The position numbers and the translations under genes were made by a program. Shown piece by piece: positions 1 through 18,807 of a stretch of DNA of 25,340 bases; within the stretch, counting starts at the first letter, position 1; each line of letters starts with the position of its first letter. Below the pieces are notes generated by a model that saw only the letters and a list, made by a program, of their open reading frames with translations, was not told where the DNA came from and made no database searches. This DNA comes from a virus (taxonomy: Duplodnaviria > Heunggongvirae > Uroviricota > Caudoviricetes), in the IMG/VR virus record IMGVR_UViG_641736116_000024; one strand, 5' to 3'.

Positions 1-702
1 ATGACTTTAAAGCGTTTGCAACTGATCGAAATGCCAATGTTATGTCGCAGGAGGAATGGGAAGCGTTGCGTGCGCTTATATCCGGGATTTACAGCAGGGA
101 AAGCATCCAGTGCGCAAGTCAATAAGGTTATTCGGCAGGCCAGCTTTATTGCTGCAGCTCTGGCCCAGTTTGTAAGTGATAAAACGCAACGGGATGTGCT
201 TGATAATGGTGATCTGCCCGGTTTTGTTGAATTGCTGGGATCGGGGTTTGCTGTTGAATACCTGAGCCGCAAGAATCCGTTTGGCGATATCAAATCGGAC
301 GGCACGGTGAAAACGGCTTTCATAAACGTTGGTTTGGGAGAAGCGGCAAAACGGGATGTGGGGACAGGGGAAAATCAGATACCGGACATGGCCTCTTTTG
401 CCAGTGGTGATGGATGGATGAAATTACCCAACGGTAAAATCCTGCAATATGGTCGTGGTGCGGTTACGCCGACATTATCGACGCAAACAATGAGAATTAC
501 ATTCAGCATCCCTTTCCCCAAAAAAGCGGACTGCGCCATGCTTACTCATTCTGGTGATGGCGGTGCGCCTTTAGGCGCTGGGCGAGGGTTCGTGATGACT
601 GCAGAAGGCCCAACGTTAACCGGCTTTAATTCTGCTTACAGAACGTCATCAACCAGCGACACGGTATCGATGAATTACAGTTGGTGGGCTGTTGGTGAGT
701 AA
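1..702 (+). CDS. Silent (promoterless) alternative tail-fibre C-terminal cassette; the part from about 344 to 702 would fuse to the H N-terminus after inversion. Upstream part (1-343) may be a decayed remnant.
   Basis: Frame 1 is open from position 1 to the stop at 700-702 with no start context. It is followed immediately by its own tail-fibre assembly gene and lies opposite and convergent to H-G. It shares an in-frame GLGE-coding 15-mer with H at the proposed crossover site. Confidence 0.5.
317..342. promoter_or_regulatory. Candidate serine-invertase crossover site (cix/gix/hix-like), outer copy
   Basis: CTTTCATAAACG-TT-GGTTTGGGAGAA. The inner arm plus centre (329-343) is a perfect 15-bp inverted copy of 2219-2233; the outer arm is degenerate. 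Confidence 0.5.
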
Positions 703-722: not shown

Positions 723-1166
723 ATGAACGAATATGTTTATAGCGCAAGGCATAATGCTTTTTTCCCTGTGGATATGATTGATAAATATAAATCAGAGGGA
801 TGGGATTTATCAGACGCTAAGGAAGTAAATCAAAATATTATCAGTGAGTTTATGGCTGAACCGCCACAAGGAAAAATCCGTATTGCCGGAGATGATGGGC
901 TGCCTGCGTGGGCAGATATTCCTCCACCCACGCATGAAGAACTTATTGAAATTACTGAATCAGAAAGACAGCTACTAATTAACCAGGCCAACGAATACAT
1001 GAACAGTAAGCAATGGCCCGGTAAAGCCGCTATTGGTCGTCTGAAAGGTGAGGAACTGGCACAATATAATTTGTGGCTGGATTATCTGGACGCACTGGAG
1101 CTGGTCGATACCGCCAGTGCGCCAGATATTGAATGGCCTACGCCTCCGGCAGTTCAGGCCAGATGA
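723..1166 (+). CDS. Tail fibre assembly protein (alternative copy, Tfa')
   Basis: C-terminus NLWLDYLDALELVDTASAPDIEWPTPP is the conserved Tfa/gpG-type tail. The ATG at 723 has AGGGTG upstream. Its 3' end overlaps the convergent G gene. Confidence 0.8.
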   Translation: MNEYVYSARHNAFFPVDMIDKYKSEGWDLSDAKEVNQNIISEFMAEPPQGKIRIAGDDGLPAWADIPPPTHEELIEITESERQLLINQANEYMNSKQWPGKAAIGRLKGEELAQYNLWLDYLDALELVDTASAPDIEWPTPPAVQAR

Positions 1167-1740
1167 CATCCGGCGCGGTGCTGGTATCTGTTGCCGTCAC
1201 CGCGTCAATGTAATCCAGCACCGTGTTAAGTCGGTTGGTTTCTGCCTGCGTCAGCTTCCGTCCGGCCTGTAATTTCAGCTGAATCAGACTAATGGAAGCC
1301 ATTGCAGTATCAATCAGCGACTGGCGTTGTGTTTCTGCCGCTTCTACTGCGGCGCTATGCTGTGCTTCGGTATCCGTCACCCATTTCTCACCATCCCATT
1401 TATCGTATGGCGTTAACGGGGCGATAGTGGTTGTATTATCAGGGTAATCACCCGGAGCGGTGATTTCTTTTGATTCTCCTGTTTCGGTGCTAAAGACGAT
1501 TTCACCGCGATGGTCTGGCACATATTCCCATGAGTTAAAATCTGCAGAACGGCAGATTGCATAACCAGCTTTGTATGCGCCTGGGGCATCTAAACAGGAA
1601 TATGCCGGAATGCCGACACCAATAGCAAGATATTCAGTTGAAGCTGAAATATATTCCCGACTCATGACATCAAAGTTATAAACAGTAATTTCTCCTGCCA
1701 TAGTGGCAATTAATTCACTGTTTAATTCTGCGTTATTCAT
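1138..1740 (-). CDS. G: Tail fibre assembly protein (P2 gpG-like)
   Basis: 200 aa; C-terminus LNTVLDYIDAVTATDTSTAPDVIWPELP is Tfa-type. Start overlaps the H stop by 1 nt. Confidence 0.85.
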   Translation of the reverse strand: MNNAELNSELIATMAGEITVYNFDVMSREYISASTEYLAIGVGIPAYSCLDAPGAYKAGYAICRSADFNSWEYVPDHRGEIVFSTETGESKEITAPGDYPDNTTTIAPLTPYDKWDGEKWVTDTEAQHSAAVEAAETQRQSLIDTAMASISLIQLKLQAGRKLTQAETNRLNTVLDYIDAVTATDTSTAPDVIWPELPEA

Positions 1741-3059
1741 TATGCAGCCCTCACAATATAGTTAAAAGCGACATTTCGTGGGCGTGTTTCATTCGCACCT
1801 GCAGGTTTAGTCGTTGCCGCAACAACACCACCCTCTGTAATAGCCGGGTTGGGAATTGGGTAATTATCGAAGTTAATGGCCGGAGACAGGGGCGTGATTT
1901 GTTTTAAAATCGTGGTGCCTGTAAAACTTTCCAGAGTCTGGTCGTTAGTTCGTGAAGTCCAGATTCCCCAATAGTGGTTATGACTGACAATCGCACCGTC
2001 CTGAAGCGTCAATAATCCCCTTCCGTTATCCACTCCACGTCCGTCATCCCAGCCACGAATAAACTCACCACGTAAATCAGGCAATTTATTTGTCGGGTAA
2101 ACCTTTGCCAGTTCCGGGTATTCTTCAGCAGAAAAAGCCGCCCCGTTGCATTTCAGCCAGCCTGTCGGCGGAGTGGCTGAAGGCCACGGAACAGGCACAC
2201 CAACGGGTAATGCCGAACCTTCTCCCAAACCAAGGTATGCGAGAAGACCGGCAACATCCTTTCCACTCAAATGAGTCAGCGTCTCATCCAGTGGCTGCTT
2301 ACCTGACAGCGCATTGTTAATGGTGGTGCTGAATTTCGGGTCATTGTTAATGGCCGCGGCAATTTCTTTCAGTGTGTCCAGCGTGTCTGGCGCGCCGTTA
2401 ATCAGAGCGGTAATAGCGGTCTGAACAAACTCAGTGGTCGCAATCCGCGTGGTGTTATTTCCTGCGGCAGGCGTTGGCGCTTTTGGTTCTCCGGTAAATG
2501 TCGGATTATGTTTCTGCGCATACTGGGTATGAGGATCCTGTGCGGCAATGTGGTTTCTCATCTGGTCATCCACATACAGCCTTAATTCCAGGACTTTATC
2601 ATCCACGTATTTACGGGTCGCCAGTACCACCGACGGGTCGATTTTCAGCGTGATGGCTTCGGTATTCGTGACAACCAGAATCATGCGGATAGTCTGGGTA
2701 CGACCGCTGCCTTCCTGTAACTGCGGTTTGTACGTTTCCGGGCAGTTCGCCACCGCAATGAGTACGCCTTCATCATCATAAAGCCCAATCTCACGGATCC
2801 AGAATCCGCCCTCGTTCTCAGGGATGATTTGCTCCGCAATAATCTGGCTCTGGTTGTTCGGGTCAACACTCAGAAGATTCAGCGGCGCGATGCGTTTCTG
2901 GTTAATAAGTTTTGTCTGTGCCGGGTCAGGTGTCGGCAAGACACCATTTGCATCACCAACGGCCATTTGCGTCAGATTCAGCTTACTGCCGAGCATCGTC
3001 GCGTTAGCCAGCCGTGCCGCGCCCTGATTAGTCAGAATGGCGTAGTATTTCACTGTCAT
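1740..3059 (-). CDS. H: Tail fibre protein H: P2-H-like N-terminal domain with a different C-terminal receptor-binding region carrying a phage tail-collar-like motif
   Basis: 439 aa. N-terminal about 150 aa follow the P2 gpH pattern (MAVGD, GGFW.RE.GLYDD.G.LIAVAN, YKP.L.EGSGR, YVDDK). C-terminal region contains GWLKCNGAAFSAEEYPELAKVY...LPDLRGEFIRGWDDGRG. Confidence 0.9.
   Translation of the reverse strand: MTVKYYAILTNQGAARLANATMLGSKLNLTQMAVGDANGVLPTPDPAQTKLINQKRIAPLNLLSVDPNNQSQIIAEQIIPENEGGFWIREIGLYDDEGVLIAVANCPETYKPQLQEGSGRTQTIRMILVVTNTEAITLKIDPSVVLATRKYVDDKVLELRLYVDDQMRNHIAAQDPHTQYAQKHNPTFTGEPKAPTPAAGNNTTRIATTEFVQTAITALINGAPDTLDTLKEIAAAINNDPKFSTTINNALSGKQPLDETLTHLSGKDVAGLLAYLGLGEGSALPVGVPVPWPSATPPTGWLKCNGAAFSAEEYPELAKVYPTNKLPDLRGEFIRGWDDGRGVDNGRGLLTLQDGAIVSHNHYWGIWTSRTNDQTLESFTGTTILKQITPLSPAINFDNYPIPNPAITEGGVVAATTKPAGANETRPRNVAFNYIVRAA
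2220..2245. promoter_or_regulatory. Candidate serine-invertase crossover site inside H (26-bp imperfect palindrome)
   Basis: TTCTCCCAAACC-AA-GGTATGCGAGAA; arms match 10/12 as inverted repeats. Close to the recalled hixL/gix pattern TTCTTGAAAACC-AA-GGTTTTTGATAA. Lies in frame at the YLGLGE codons of H. Confidence 0.55.
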
Positions 3060-5552: not shown

Positions 5553-5618
5553 AACGGGAAGGATGCCGCCGGGTCATACCGGCGGCAATGTGACGATGAG
5601 GTGCCAGGAATGGCACAA

Positions 5619-6071: not shown

Positions 6072-6531
6072 CCCACTTGCTCACCAGTTCGCCATTGATA
6101 TAAAGCTCCATCGGGCGGGTGACCGGCTCCGGCGGCGGAGGTTCCGGGATATTCTTCACATGCAGTGCGCCGACCACCTCACTGACCAGCGTGCGCTCGG
6201 TCAGCATCAGGCTGATGCTGATATCAAAGCTGCTGTCATTGTTGATGTCTGCATAAAACGTGAAGCCCTTTTTCTGGCCTGCGTCGGTGGTCATGATGTC
6301 GGGCTGATTTTCCCGCAGCCACGCCAGCACCGGCACGATGAGCAGGTCAAAATCACCGGTAAAGTCGGTCACAATGACATTGAGCGTGTAACGCTTTTCG
6401 AATGACAGCGACGCCGCCAGTGTGGAGGCAATACTCCCGTTATCCACGAATATCCGCAGCATATCGGGGTTAGTTTTCAGCACCGTGACGGCATCAGTCA
6501 GCGCCCTGCGCAGGCTGTCGGGTTTGAGCAT
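6064..6531 (-). CDS. R: Tail completion protein gpR
   Basis: 155 aa, P2 gpR length and position. Confidence 0.9.
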   Translation of the reverse strand: MLKPDSLRRALTDAVTVLKTNPDMLRIFVDNGSIASTLAASLSFEKRYTLNVIVTDFTGDFDLLIVPVLAWLRENQPDIMTTDAGQKKGFTFYADINNDSSFDISISLMLTERTLVSEVVGALHVKNIPEPPPPEPVTRPMELYINGELVSKWDE

Positions 6532-6551: not shown

Positions 6552-6785
6552 TTAATCATTTTTAACCTGGCTGGCACAGCGTGCCAGCGCGTTCTCAAGC
6601 TGCCGGATATCAGCACTTAAATCGCCGTTCGTCTGCGGGTCACTGCCCGGCATCGGGCAAAGGCTCACTTTCGGGCAGGCGTTGGCGACAATCACTGGCG
6701 TCTGCGCAGGCGGGGCGCTGGTGCAACCGGCGCACAGCATCAGGCAGGTCAGTGCCGTACCAGCGGCGAAAATCTTCGTTTTCAT
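6552..6785 (-). CDS. lysC: LysC, Rz1-like outer-membrane lipoprotein spanin, overlapping lysB in another frame
   Basis: Internal start MKTKIFAAGTALTCLMLCAGC gives a signal peptide plus lipobox (LCAGC). Gene overlaps the 3' part of lysB and extends beyond it. Confidence 0.8.
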   Translation of the reverse strand: MKTKIFAAGTALTCLMLCAGCTSAPPAQTPVIVANACPKVSLCPMPGSDPQTNGDLSADIRQLENALARCASQVKND

Positions 6786-15117: not shown

Positions 15118-17088
15118 TTAAAGGTCATCAATTAAACCTAAAGGCAAACCGTCCTCACCAACCGAGCTATAATGAGCGATAATATTCGAAAGTTCACCAG
15201 TAGAAAACGAATTAGGCAAATCATTATCAACTAATATAATCTGGCACGGAACATTTTTTCTTTCTGCTTTTTGAACTGTATTCAATAGTTGTTCATAAAT
15301 ATTTTGATACTTCATCGGATCTGACATTCCCTCAAGGTCATCCTCGAATGCAAGAGTTTCTTTTGAATATTTTTCCTTGGTCTGTTTCCCTAAATATTTG
15401 CCAACCGTATCAAATATCAAAAGTAAAGGATGGTTAACATTATGATCTATTGCATAATCAAGAATAGACAAAAGATACCCAATAGAAGAAATAGTTCTCA
15501 AACCTCCGGATGTTATTTTAAAATATTCTTTTTCTCTTATAACAGGAATGTAATAGCTTTCAGAGATTTTTATCCCCGTTCTGTTTTTGATATTAATACC
15601 CTTCAAATACTGACTAAATCTATCACCCAAACCTTGTAAAATGCCCTCCATGCTAGGTGCGTTTTTCTTTAACGCCTCCAAGCGTTCAGTTAATGCTTCA
15701 ATATCTTTTCTCAGTACCTGATACTTTTCAAGCAGTTCCTCTTGCTGGTTTCTAACCTTCAAATCTTTTACTAACTGCTCCCTAACCTTCTCATTTTTTG
15801 AGATCTCTTTAATATAAAAATCTCTCTGAGTCAAGAATGGTGTAATCATTGACTGGCTTTCTTCGTCAATCAATTCTCTCAACTCGTCAAGTCGTTCATC
15901 TAATTCCTTTTTATAACCTGATTCTTTTTTTAATTTAAATGACATTTCTGAGATCATGTCATTAATATTTCGTCTACGTCGACTAAGTGAATTCAACTCT
16001 TCATTAAGATCTTTTTCTGATGAAATTTCAAATGGAAAATCAGAATCATCTATTTTAATGTGGCTATCACAGACTGGACAGGAAAATACTTCCTTATCCA
16101 ATACACCAATGCGAGAATTTGCTGTTTTAATCGCTTTGAGTTTTTCAATATCATTATCATAGTCATTTTTTAACCGCGAATATTTATCAATCTTATCCTC
16201 AAGCGCAGTAATATTTAATATGCACTCTTTGTATTTAAGCGAAATAAAATTGTGAGCATCTTTCAATTCTGTATACTGTATGGAATCCGCTTTCATATTT
16301 TTATCGAGAGCAGACAAACCTGCAACAAGTTCTTCTAAAACAAGATCTATCCTATTAATCTCATCATCAATTGATTCAATCGTTTCATAGTCTGTATCGC
16401 GAAGAAATTCAGATATTATCTGATACTTCCTATTTAATTCCGTTACTAAACTACTTTTTGCAGATATTTCACCTTGGAGTCTGGCGATGCTTTCATCCAA
16501 CACATTGAACATGTATTTAAAAACTTCTTTCGTAAATGCGTAGCGGGACCAATCACCCAATCGCAAGAAAGATTTACTACCAATATCATCCTGACTTACA
16601 TAAACAAATTTATATATATTTCTAAAACTTAACCTGCGCATCTGTGAATGAGCTTTAGAAGGAGACACCTTAATTTCAATCTTTGGAAAATTAAGACTAT
16701 CAAGTAAAAACTCCGAAAAAACACCATCAACATTTGATAATGGGCTATAATTAGGAGCGTATTTTTTCGGAAAATGTTTATGTAAATCATCAAACTTACA
16801 ACGATAAACTTCTATTGCTTTTTTATGATCATAGATATCTCTTACGATTGTGAATACAGTATCATTGATCACTACTTCAAGAGCAGCATAGTTTACTGAT
16901 GTTTTTATTTCATCTGCTAAATCTATAGAGCTAGCACCTAAAAGATAATTAATAAACTCCAGAATGCTTGACTTACCTGTGTCAGAGTCTCCGTAGATAA
17001 CATTGAGACCTTTATAAAAAGTAGTGACGTAGTTTTTACGAACGCCAACAAGAATCAAACTATTGATATTGAGATATGATTTCATCAT
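15118..17088 (-). CDS. ABC/SMC-Rad50-like ATPase with central coiled coil and CxxC zinc hook; ATPase component of an ABC-three-component (Lamassu-like) system
   Basis: 656 aa. Walker A GDSDTGKS (aa 33-40); long charged, heptad-rich middle containing CPVCDSH; C-terminal signature-like KITSGGLR; Walker B/D-loop LLLIFDTVG. No TOPRIM or nuclease domain recognised. Start overlaps the upstream stop (ATGA). Confidence 0.75.
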   Translation of the reverse strand: MMKSYLNINSLILVGVRKNYVTTFYKGLNVIYGDSDTGKSSILEFINYLLGASSIDLADEIKTSVNYAALEVVINDTVFTIVRDIYDHKKAIEVYRCKFDDLHKHFPKKYAPNYSPLSNVDGVFSEFLLDSLNFPKIEIKVSPSKAHSQMRRLSFRNIYKFVYVSQDDIGSKSFLRLGDWSRYAFTKEVFKYMFNVLDESIARLQGEISAKSSLVTELNRKYQIISEFLRDTDYETIESIDDEINRIDLVLEELVAGLSALDKNMKADSIQYTELKDAHNFISLKYKECILNITALEDKIDKYSRLKNDYDNDIEKLKAIKTANSRIGVLDKEVFSCPVCDSHIKIDDSDFPFEISSEKDLNEELNSLSRRRRNINDMISEMSFKLKKESGYKKELDERLDELRELIDEESQSMITPFLTQRDFYIKEISKNEKVREQLVKDLKVRNQQEELLEKYQVLRKDIEALTERLEALKKNAPSMEGILQGLGDRFSQYLKGINIKNRTGIKISESYYIPVIREKEYFKITSGGLRTISSIGYLLSILDYAIDHNVNHPLLLIFDTVGKYLGKQTKEKYSKETLAFEDDLEGMSDPMKYQNIYEQLLNTVQKAERKNVPCQIILVDNDLPNSFSTGELSNIIAHYSSVGEDGLPLGLIDDL

Positions 17089-17597
17089 TTCTCCTTGAAG
17101 ACTTGATTTATAACAGAGTTTAACTTAGAGGTAGGCAATGCTTGTAGCGGTAACAATGCTTCGGATAGTCGTTTTATTTCTTTAAAATATCCATCAGTCA
17201 ATGAGCTAGCAAATTCCTTACCTTTTTCAGATAAAAATAATTTAACACTCTCATTATTTTTTTTCTCAGCTGAGAGCAATCCCCGCAATGACATAATTTT
17301 TATAAGATATTTCACTTTGGAATTGTCGAATAAGATATCTACATTTGTTGAAAAACTCTTTATTGTATAAGTTAACTGGGACTCGACACAAGCAGGCTTT
17401 TTCCCCGAAACTGTAAGAGCATAATCAATTTTTGATGGGTTTTTTATCAGATACATAAAAATTTGTATTTTATTAATATCTAATGATAACACTCCTTTTT
17501 TGCTATGAGATAATATAGATATAGCAATGGCAAGCATAGCAAAATTCAAGCTATACTCTTCATCAAGAGGAATATACGGCAAGTTATTTTTCTTCAT
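17085..17597 (-). CDS. Small middle component of the three-gene system (LmuC-like position)
   Basis: 170 aa with no recognisable motifs; AT-rich; translationally coupled on both sides (14-nt and 4-nt overlaps). Confidence 0.5.
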   Translation of the reverse strand: MKKNNLPYIPLDEEYSLNFAMLAIAISILSHSKKGVLSLDINKIQIFMYLIKNPSKIDYALTVSGKKPACVESQLTYTIKSFSTNVDILFDNSKVKYLIKIMSLRGLLSAEKKNNESVKLFLSEKGKEFASSLTDGYFKEIKRLSEALLPLQALPTSKLNSVINQVFKEK

Positions 17598-18807
17598 GAT
17601 TACCTCGCCGTAATTGCTCCAAAGTTTCTACGCTGGTTTCAGATGACCAGACAATATCCCTGTCATTTTTGTTAGCCAGTTGATGCAACATTCCTTTCTT
17701 ATGTATCGTTTCTAAACTTTTTATAAGAGAATCTAACGACGACTTATCCTCTTGGGCTATTCGTCTATGAACAGCAGCAATAAATTTATCTGGGGAAATT
17801 GAATTCGCGATATATTGCTCATACTCTTCCTGGTAAATCTCCCTTATTTTAGAATACAAATGACCAAGTAGTTTCCTATCGTAATCACTCGTAAAAATAT
17901 TTCTCGCAAGCTCAGCATTATAATAATATTCCTTTGCATGCATAGCGATATCCTGATGTATATCTGCGACAATCATTTTTAAGACGAAATACTCATTATC
18001 ATATTGTTTCTCATCAGAAAAACGCTCAACACATATCTTCTTGGGTGCTTCTAAATTTATCTGCTGAATAAATTGCTTTACCGCAACAAACACTGTAGAC
18101 GAGCTGTTTTCGGGCTTGCAAATTGAGCTATGCCCTTCATTAACTGCAATTGAGTTATTTCGTTCACTATCCATCGGTAATGCGCTTTTTTTATCAACTA
18201 TAGTGTCATGAGAACCATAAACATATCTAGTGATAGGAAGTTTTTTGCTACAATTTATCCAGCGCCTATTCAACGTATCGGTCGCTTCACTTAACAATCC
18301 AAGATCTACTAACTGAGCATTTGAAGATACCATTGAAGTTATATTCGCCAATTTAGCACCAAAGTGAGGGACTGCTAACGAAATGAATCCAATTATATTA
18401 GATTGTTCCTCATGCTCAACTTTTTTTAGAATTAGATTTTTTGATATTACCCCCCCCATACTATGGGCGATTATTATAATTCGAGAGTAATCACTTAGCG
18501 TTACCCTAATCTCAGTATACAATAACTCAGCTATTTCATCAGTTGGTAAATTTCTCTCTAACTTATTTTTCTTAGAGAAAATACGAGCCCATAATCCTGA
18601 CGTTTTAGCATACGTTTGTGTAAATTTGGTGAAATAATTGAAACATGCAATATCAAATACATTGCCAATGTCTTCATCTTCTGCTAATAGTTTTGGAAAT
18701 GAAGTTTCTTTATTAAAGTTCCATGTTTCCAAACCACCATTTAATCCATGTACAAATAGTATCAGGCTATCTTTTTTCTCGTGGCTTATCCATTCAACCA
18801 TGCTCAT
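17584..18807 (-). CDS. Alpha/beta-hydrolase (lipase/esterase-like) effector with a C-terminal helical domain; LmuA-like effector position
   Basis: 407 aa. Oxyanion-hole LILFVHG (His20-Gly21), nucleophile elbow IIIAHSMGG (Ser116), downstream YVYGSHDTIVD and NEGHSS as candidate Asp/His. C-terminal about 180 aa is helical and charged. Confidence 0.7.
   Translation of the reverse strand: MSMVEWISHEKKDSLILFVHGLNGGLETWNFNKETSFPKLLAEDEDIGNVFDIACFNYFTKFTQTYAKTSGLWARIFSKKNKLERNLPTDEIAELLYTEIRVTLSDYSRIIIIAHSMGGVISKNLILKKVEHEEQSNIIGFISLAVPHFGAKLANITSMVSSNAQLVDLGLLSEATDTLNRRWINCSKKLPITRYVYGSHDTIVDKKSALPMDSERNNSIAVNEGHSSICKPENSSSTVFVAVKQFIQQINLEAPKKICVERFSDEKQYDNEYFVLKMIVADIHQDIAMHAKEYYYNAELARNIFTSDYDRKLLGHLYSKIREIYQEEYEQYIANSISPDKFIAAVHRRIAQEDKSSLDSLIKSLETIHKKGMLHQLANKNDRDIVWSSETSVETLEQLRRGNHEEK

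Follow-up and report, generated by a model that had tools for sequence, protein, structure and literature searches.

The first 343 bases of the 25,340-nucleotide viral sequence analysed here (the whole stretch, referred to throughout as the window) raise the question of what occupies the position immediately upstream of the outer crossover site of an invertible tail-fibre segment. An open reading frame runs through this position and across the site, and the original prediction took it to be either the decayed 5' remnant of a donor fibre gene or part of a multi-cassette system extending to the left. The remainder of the window is readily placed. Positions 318-25340 correspond to the P2-like prophage of Escherichia coli O157:H7 TW14359 (NC_013008.1 2813864-2838885), and over these 25,023 bases the two sequences differ at only two places, by a substitution (5604) and a single-base insertion (6564). 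On its right the window ends in yegR, a host gene, hence the prophage sits in its usual chromosomal site. The window starts exactly at the ATG of the frame-1 ORF and ends exactly at the start codon of yegR on the minus strand; it seems to have been cut at the boundaries of called genes, and base 1 is therefore no evidence of a contig end. The features of the inversion segment are as follows.

Positions 317-342, plus strand: outer 26-bp crossover site (table of nine loci, alignment, BLAST block boundaries, inverted repeat).
Positions 343-702, plus strand: alternative fibre C-terminal cassette with a gp53-like C domain, unjoined to H in this orientation (Pfam PF21882, E = 5.5e-12).
Positions 723-1166, plus strand: tail-fibre assembly chaperone of the 343-702 cassette (Pfam Caudo_TAP, E = 9e-31; TW14359 annotation).
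Positions 1138-1740, minus strand: tail-fibre assembly chaperone of the currently expressed cassette (Pfam Caudo_TAP, E = 1.3e-32).
Positions 1740-3059, minus strand: P2-like H tail-fibre gene, with its constant part at 2234-3059 and its current variable part at 1740-2219 (Pfam Phage_tail_fib and Collar; translation).
Positions 2220-2245, plus strand: inner 26-bp crossover site inside H, TTCTCCCAAACC AA GGTATGCGAGAA (inverted repeat, site table, pattern scan).

The Pfam matches place two alternative C-terminal cassettes head to head, each with its own chaperone. The cassette at 343-702 is 100% identical to that of TW14359 and is fused to H in genomes of the other orientation. Both orientations occur among public genomes, which carry either an H of 439 aa together with a silent 136-aa gp53-like ORF, or an H of 399 aa that includes the gp53-like cassette. 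The outer site consists of an outer half, CTTTCATAAACG, at 317-328, a TT core at 329-330 and an inner half, GGTTTGGGAGAA, at 331-342. An 18-nt inverted repeat (326-343 and 2219-2236) marks both sites, which are inverted relative to each other, have the 12-2-12 structure and share identical inner halves and the same core (TT/AA). In TW14359 the outer site is preceded by the invertase gene, encoding a 197-aa serine recombinase (Resolvase and HTH_7 domains), and then by the tail-sheath gene, and all copies of the P2-like prophage examined in detail have the invertase, with the sheath gene beyond it, at the same place. Its absence from the window, already noted in the original prediction, was borne out by a tblastn search with the TW14359 invertase, which detected no homologue and returned only a 26-residue match (E = 5); hence no serine invertase gene adjoins the distal site here. 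The surrounding segment is a standard Din-family fibre switch, without its invertase in this window. The two-site model is right for the P2-like phage. The left piece is foreign to that phage, and the earlier observation that a two-site scheme leaves it unexplained holds good.

The feature of the left piece that had suggested kinship with H was a similarity between the translations upstream of the two sites. These do resemble each other: FINVGLGE precedes the outer site (319-342), and LLAYLGLGE the inner one. The resemblance does not extend to protein homology: only (V/L)GLGE is shared, and it is encoded by 15 bp that the two crossover sites have in common (TTGGTTTGGGAGAAG), and a BLASTP comparison of the 117-aa constant part with the 439-aa H protein found no similarity (best E = 13). 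A search for further copies of the site likewise gave no sign of a larger system. The pattern TTCTCCCAAACCAA occurs only twice in the window, at 329-342 and 2220-2233, and no third site was found across the 25,340 bases when up to two mismatches were permitted.

The identity of the left piece is instead clear from alignment to known tail-fibre genes. Window 1-343 matches 436 E. coli records at 98.5% identity (E = 7e-170) within an annotated tail-fibre gene, and those of the records that were listed are mostly O157:H7. The expectation that the piece belongs to a second tail-fibre gene was therefore correct. Within it, 315 of the 317 bases at 1-317 (99.4%) are identical to ECs_0280 of strain Sakai, a gene of the cryptic lambdoid prophage Sp1 (CP-933H), which adjoins thrW. 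In Sakai this gene is followed by tfaE, yfdK, yfdL and pinE, a Pin-type invertible fibre module, and the gene is a homologue of stfP/ycfK of e14. The features of the left piece are as follows.

Positions 1-317, plus strand: constant (N-terminal) part of a short tail-fibre gene of Sp1/CP-933H type, Sakai ECs_0280 family (alignment, two differences to Sakai Sp1).
Position 70, plus strand: private substitution, C to G, changing Pro to Arg in the native frame and creating a GTG in frame 1 (alignment).
Positions 84-86, plus strand: one-base insertion, GG to GGG, causing a +1 frameshift (alignments and translations).

By these alignments, window 1-317 comprises nearly all of the constant part of the short tail-fibre gene in Sp1/CP-933H, a cryptic prophage of O157:H7. 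The size of the gene in related prophages bears on its class: intact relatives have baseplate J and DUF2612/Wedge1 genes preceding the fibre gene, and their fibre product is only 236-264 aa, so that window 1-343 represents almost all of the constant part of a short fibre, rather than a fragment of a long one. Proteins of the 236-aa family are 97-99% identical to the constant-part product, and once the frameshift is corrected, the product of 1-702 is 98% identical to a natural flipped-state Sp1 fibre protein (P0005) carried by at least 1000 contigs. A Pfam search of the part encoded by 1-317 gave no match; in the frame-1 product, only the C-terminal gp53-like domain was recognised (residues 140-231). 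The Sp1-type constant part probably attaches the fibre to its own baseplate. The lack of similarity to P2 H, and the different baseplate genes of its relatives, suggest that it could not serve the P2-like virion. A native Sp1 left piece would continue to the left of base 1 as ...ATGGCGAAAA, with Sp1-like or baseplate genes beyond. The left piece is a fragment of an annotated, widespread gene, and nothing here represents a new kind of system.

An apparently intact prophage of non-P2 type was also observed (L016, JAKUCU010000001.1, 3270-6120), in which genes for a spike, a sheath initiator, baseplate J and Wedge1 are found together with a 236-aa fibre and pin. Its 147-aa chaperone is exactly the same in sequence as the P2-like chaperone, and these cassettes are thus common to unrelated tail types.

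The unusual reading frames of the left piece were also examined. Frame 1 stays open from base 1 until it meets the TAA at 700-702 (233 codons), with about 114 open codons upstream of the outer site, and a protein-like frame-3 peptide runs to a stop at 121-123; both had been described correctly from the sequence alone. Translation of the native gene begins at an ATG 10 nt to the left of the window and follows frame 3 as far as base 84; from base 85 onwards the native reading continues in frame 1. As a consequence of the extra G at 84-86, the native frame ends at the TAA at 121-123 and frame 1 continues; the succession of a frame-3 peptide and a frame-1 open frame therefore arises because one gene carries a +1 frameshift. 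The 233-aa ORF therefore opens with 28 codons of out-of-frame noise, and no intact frame extends from the native ATG through the crossover site. The gene is dead here because of this frameshift, and the left piece is a pseudogene in the window. Neither the change at 70 nor that at 84-86 was found in the alleles of Sakai, strain 9000, TST3, A1_136 or LR-46.

These findings leave little of the donor-relic and multi-cassette models, both of which are largely refuted. It is true that the frame is open and related to fibre genes, and P2-like segments with more than two sites exist, such as that with three inverted repeats in enteropathogenic E. coli (EPEC) E2348/69 (PMC4272514). Yet a relic that had arrived with a cassette, or the edge of a Min- or shufflon-like system with several cassettes, is very improbable here, because the piece is a constant N-terminal part and not a variable C-terminal cassette, only two sites are present in 25 kb, and the place is taken by the invertase gene in the P2-like copies described above. 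Furthermore, the near-identity to a living allele in Sp1, 2.5 Mb away in the same serotype, argues against an old or decayed remnant.

The anatomy of the join itself was studied by comparing crossover sites across nine loci. All six of the tabulated fibre-proximal sites of the Sp1/e14 gene family have the outer half CTCT(T/C)(C/G)AAAACC, which encodes LQNL or LENL, while every tabulated invertase-facing site has TTTTCATAAACG. The window lacks the fibre-proximal form: C+TTTCATAAACG faces the Sp1 constant part and encodes FINV. Apart from base 317, the outer half at 317-328 is of the invertase-proximal type; in none of the eight other tabulated loci does this type face a fibre constant part. The switch from Sp1-type to P2-like sequence occurs between 317 and 319, on the outer margin of the 26-bp site, with 11-12 bp separating it from the 2-bp core, and base 318 is the last to which both half-sites align if indels are allowed (GGCTCTTCA-AAACC against GGCT-TTCATAAACG). 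The Sp1 constant part abuts the P2-like outer site with both register and frame preserved.

The invertase-proximal form of the site (GCATTTTCATAAACG...) was also seen at both ends of a segment, in inverted orientation, in two IMG/VR contigs (L039, 23-51 on the plus strand and 1917-1945 on the minus strand; L096, 2345-2373 on the plus strand and 6441-6469 on the minus strand). This arrangement is absent from the loci studied here.

It was considered whether the join might represent a distinct natural allele, in which a fibre constant part would ordinarily continue through a half-site of TTTCATAAACG type. The same frame does stay open across the invertase-proximal half-site (IFINVGLGE), and strain K5609 has an intermediate form, AFQNLGLGE. 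However, no FINV-type form was present among the top proteins retrieved from 4,346 homologues, the 27-nt junction was absent from all collections scanned, and both flanks are O157:H7 sequences, all of which makes such an allele hardly credible.

Comparison with characterised systems shows how closely the two parts of the window resemble standard modules, and where they depart from them. The Sp1/CP-933H module has the same family of 26-bp sites and a 1.1-kb cassette in common with the P2-like segment at 97% identity, in addition to the near-identical constant part. The difference is that in Sp1 the fibre-facing outer half is CTCTTCAAAACC and the segment ends at pinE, whereas in the window the half-site is of the invertase-proximal type, the segment continues into the P2-like H and the fibre gene is frameshifted. 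The P segment of e14 in E. coli K-12 (stfP/ycfK, tfaP, tfaE, stfE, pinE) is alike in architecture and site family, and the last stretch of its ycfK constant part shows 91% identity to window 265-343; by contrast, the upstream constant region of e14 is another allele, and its invertase is in cis. Inversion of the e14 segment fuses alternative C-termini to one constant part (PMC4272514). The fibre switch of TW14359 and its relatives matches the window in having two sites, two cassettes and two chaperones, but to the left of its outer site lie the invertase and then the sheath gene, where the window has the head of an Sp1 fibre gene. Similar P2-like switches are present in EPEC E2348/69 (PMC4272514).

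The logic is that of the G segment of Mu (Gin) and the C segment of P1 (Cin), where the reading frame of a constant fibre part crosses a 12-2-12 site and is completed by either of two cassettes. In the Gin and Cin systems the invertase adjoins the far site, and members of the Din family complement each other in trans. These systems have one constant part facing the segment, whereas the window has a second one, foreign and dead, and no invertase in cis.

The most probable explanation for the join, held with moderate confidence, is an assembly chimera between the two 97%-identical modules, which is favoured over a genuine recombinant between prophages. The starting point would be the 1.1-kb cassette common to the Sp1 and P2-like inversion modules: in its flipped state, Sp1 would read from Sc through the site and into that same cassette. 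As flipped Sp1 runs into a 97%-identical sequence, an assembler could pass from the head of the Sp1 fibre gene to the P2-like copy. At the site, Sp1 reads would be outnumbered by those of the P2-like and pinE sides, whose half-site would replace that of Sp1 as far as alignment is possible (base 318), while the Sp1 tip would stay thinly covered and rich in errors.

The distribution of private differences in the window is counted towards this artefactual reading. Two are found in the left 317 bases, against two in the remaining 25,023. At the right-hand rate only 0.025 would be expected in 317 bases (P ~3e-4, Poisson calculation). Both private indels, at 84-86 and 6564, are one-base insertions, a typical signature of consensus error.

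Other draft assemblies show irregularities in the same 1.1-kb repeat. In two of them the Sp1 fibre module is a mosaic of Sp1 and P2-like alleles across it (K5609 contig JHIA01000078, L011 3755-5260; and the Logan contig of SRR5410064, L012), with the alleles distinguished at diagnostic positions 319, 409, 435, 941 and 1112-1116, and K5609 having the P2-type 319T. This patchwork reflects either assembly blending or real gene conversion between the modules of the two prophages. A further draft (L018) breaks inside the cassette. Where a polylysogenic E. coli carries several paralogous fibre modules of Din type, these have sites and near-identical cassettes in common, so that blending or cross-joining can occur in draft assemblies. 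The K5609 and Logan contigs serve as examples of blended modules, and the result mimics extra cassettes or missing invertases.

Several considerations argue against an artefact. The 30-odd diagnostic positions between 319 and 1419 are all P2-like, with no mosaic, a pattern that a single real crossover would also give, and the exact join in register and in frame counts in the same direction. Hybrid k-mers such as those at 310-330 cannot be created by a de Bruijn-graph assembler, so junction molecules must have existed if the sequence comes from a pure short-read graph assembly. Large prophage-to-prophage rearrangements are also said to be common in O157:H7.

The main alternative to the chimera is a genuine recombinant between the Sp1 fibre-proximal and P2-like invertase-proximal site regions, aligned in register, which would have joined the Sp1 fibre head to the P2-like segment. 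Candidate routes are the trans action of a Din-family invertase, RecA-dependent exchange within the 97%-identical cassette accompanied by conversion as far as homology extends, and template switching. In the product, two fibre constant parts would converge on a single invertible segment from either side, with gross rearrangement of the chromosome. Such a recombinant is possible but unlikely. In its favour, both modules coexist in O157:H7 genomes with common sites and cassettes, both segments flip in nature, the sequence to the right of 318 is cleanly P2-like, the join keeps register and frame, and the K5609 mosaic could be real gene conversion between the modules.

The position of the switch, however, is difficult to reconcile with the expected routes of recombination. 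Serine invertases of the Din family cut at the core. A canonical invertase crossover at that point would have kept the Sp1 outer half, CTCTTCAAAACC, and a RecA crossover in the identical 80-bp block at 329-408 would likewise have kept it; the window has TTTCATAAACG, and both routes were rejected on these grounds. If the junction were real, the location of the crossover at the site's margin would suggest that it arose non-canonically, for example by conversion or template switching within synapsed sites. A further candidate, the integration of a circular P2-like genome into Sp1, was rejected because the window runs from int into the host yegR, and not into attP/ogr.

The chromosomal context of the two prophages is a second obstacle to a genuine recombinant. 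In all nine complete genomes cross-checked (TW14359, 272, Rafaela_II, F7386, F6667, ERL05-1306, 149, 2010C-3142 and 7386WT), Sp1 and the P2-like prophage have the same orientation and are 2.4-2.5 Mb apart. This implies that the join would be the deletion-type product of direct sites spanning that distance, which is inviable unless an earlier inversion had flipped one of the prophages. The excess of private changes in 1-317 would also be left unexplained.

Neither was the junction seen elsewhere. It was absent from 5,426 complete E. coli genomes searched with 3.1-kb, 201-nt and 54-nt queries, in which the best matches were to flipped Sp1 at 94.5-98% or to the P2-like prophage from base 318 onwards. 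Exact scans with 40-nt and 27-nt junction sequences found no instance in IMG/VR, the GTDB species representatives (185,579 genomes) or the JGI metagenomes, although the normal invertase-proximal site, used as a positive control, gave at least 120 IMG/VR loci. Look-ups of the exact product of the junction ORF, using four possible starts, found no gene on record. A predicted inversion product of Sp1 and the P2-like prophage, comprising the Sp1 head, its own half-site and an H-type cassette, had best matches of 96-97%, in non-O157 strains, and no perfect match to the predicted viable O157 inversion junction was found, a result that carries no diagnostic weight for either reading. Nothing specific was found in the literature on invertase-mediated rearrangement between prophages in O157.

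The full scenario for a real junction is unlikely. It would entail recombination between the Sp1 and P2-like site regions, leaving a cassette segment between convergent fibre genes of unrelated virion types, uncoupled from its invertase, with megabases of the chromosome rearranged. In the Gin, Hin and Cin systems, the invertase gene itself contains the Fis-dependent recombinational enhancer. A real join would therefore have deprived the segment of its invertase in cis, and presumably of the enhancer too; it would be largely locked, with any switching dependent on Pin-type enzymes acting in trans, and inefficient, and the left-hand gene would remain dead. Were the junction confirmed by reads, the fibre-switch modules of two prophages would constitute a substrate for large chromosomal rearrangement, and the switch would have been orphaned from its recombinase.

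Some minor observations were made elsewhere in the P2-like prophage. Between the portal and replication genes, three genes occupy 15118-18807 on the minus strand, annotated in RefSeq as an AAA family ATPase (656 aa), 'ABC-three component system middle component 4' (170 aa) and 'ABC-three component system protein' (407 aa). They form a cargo or defence-type insert at the position at which P2 carries old/tin. The insertion at 6564 (A to AA after a T5 run) is shared neither by TW14359 nor by any of the best-matching genomes. It would shift the frame of the embedded lysC (Rz1-like) gene, in which it lies, and is probably a consensus error. The substitution at 5604, a private C where TW14359 has T, is intergenic, lying between the baseplate V and virion morphogenesis genes.
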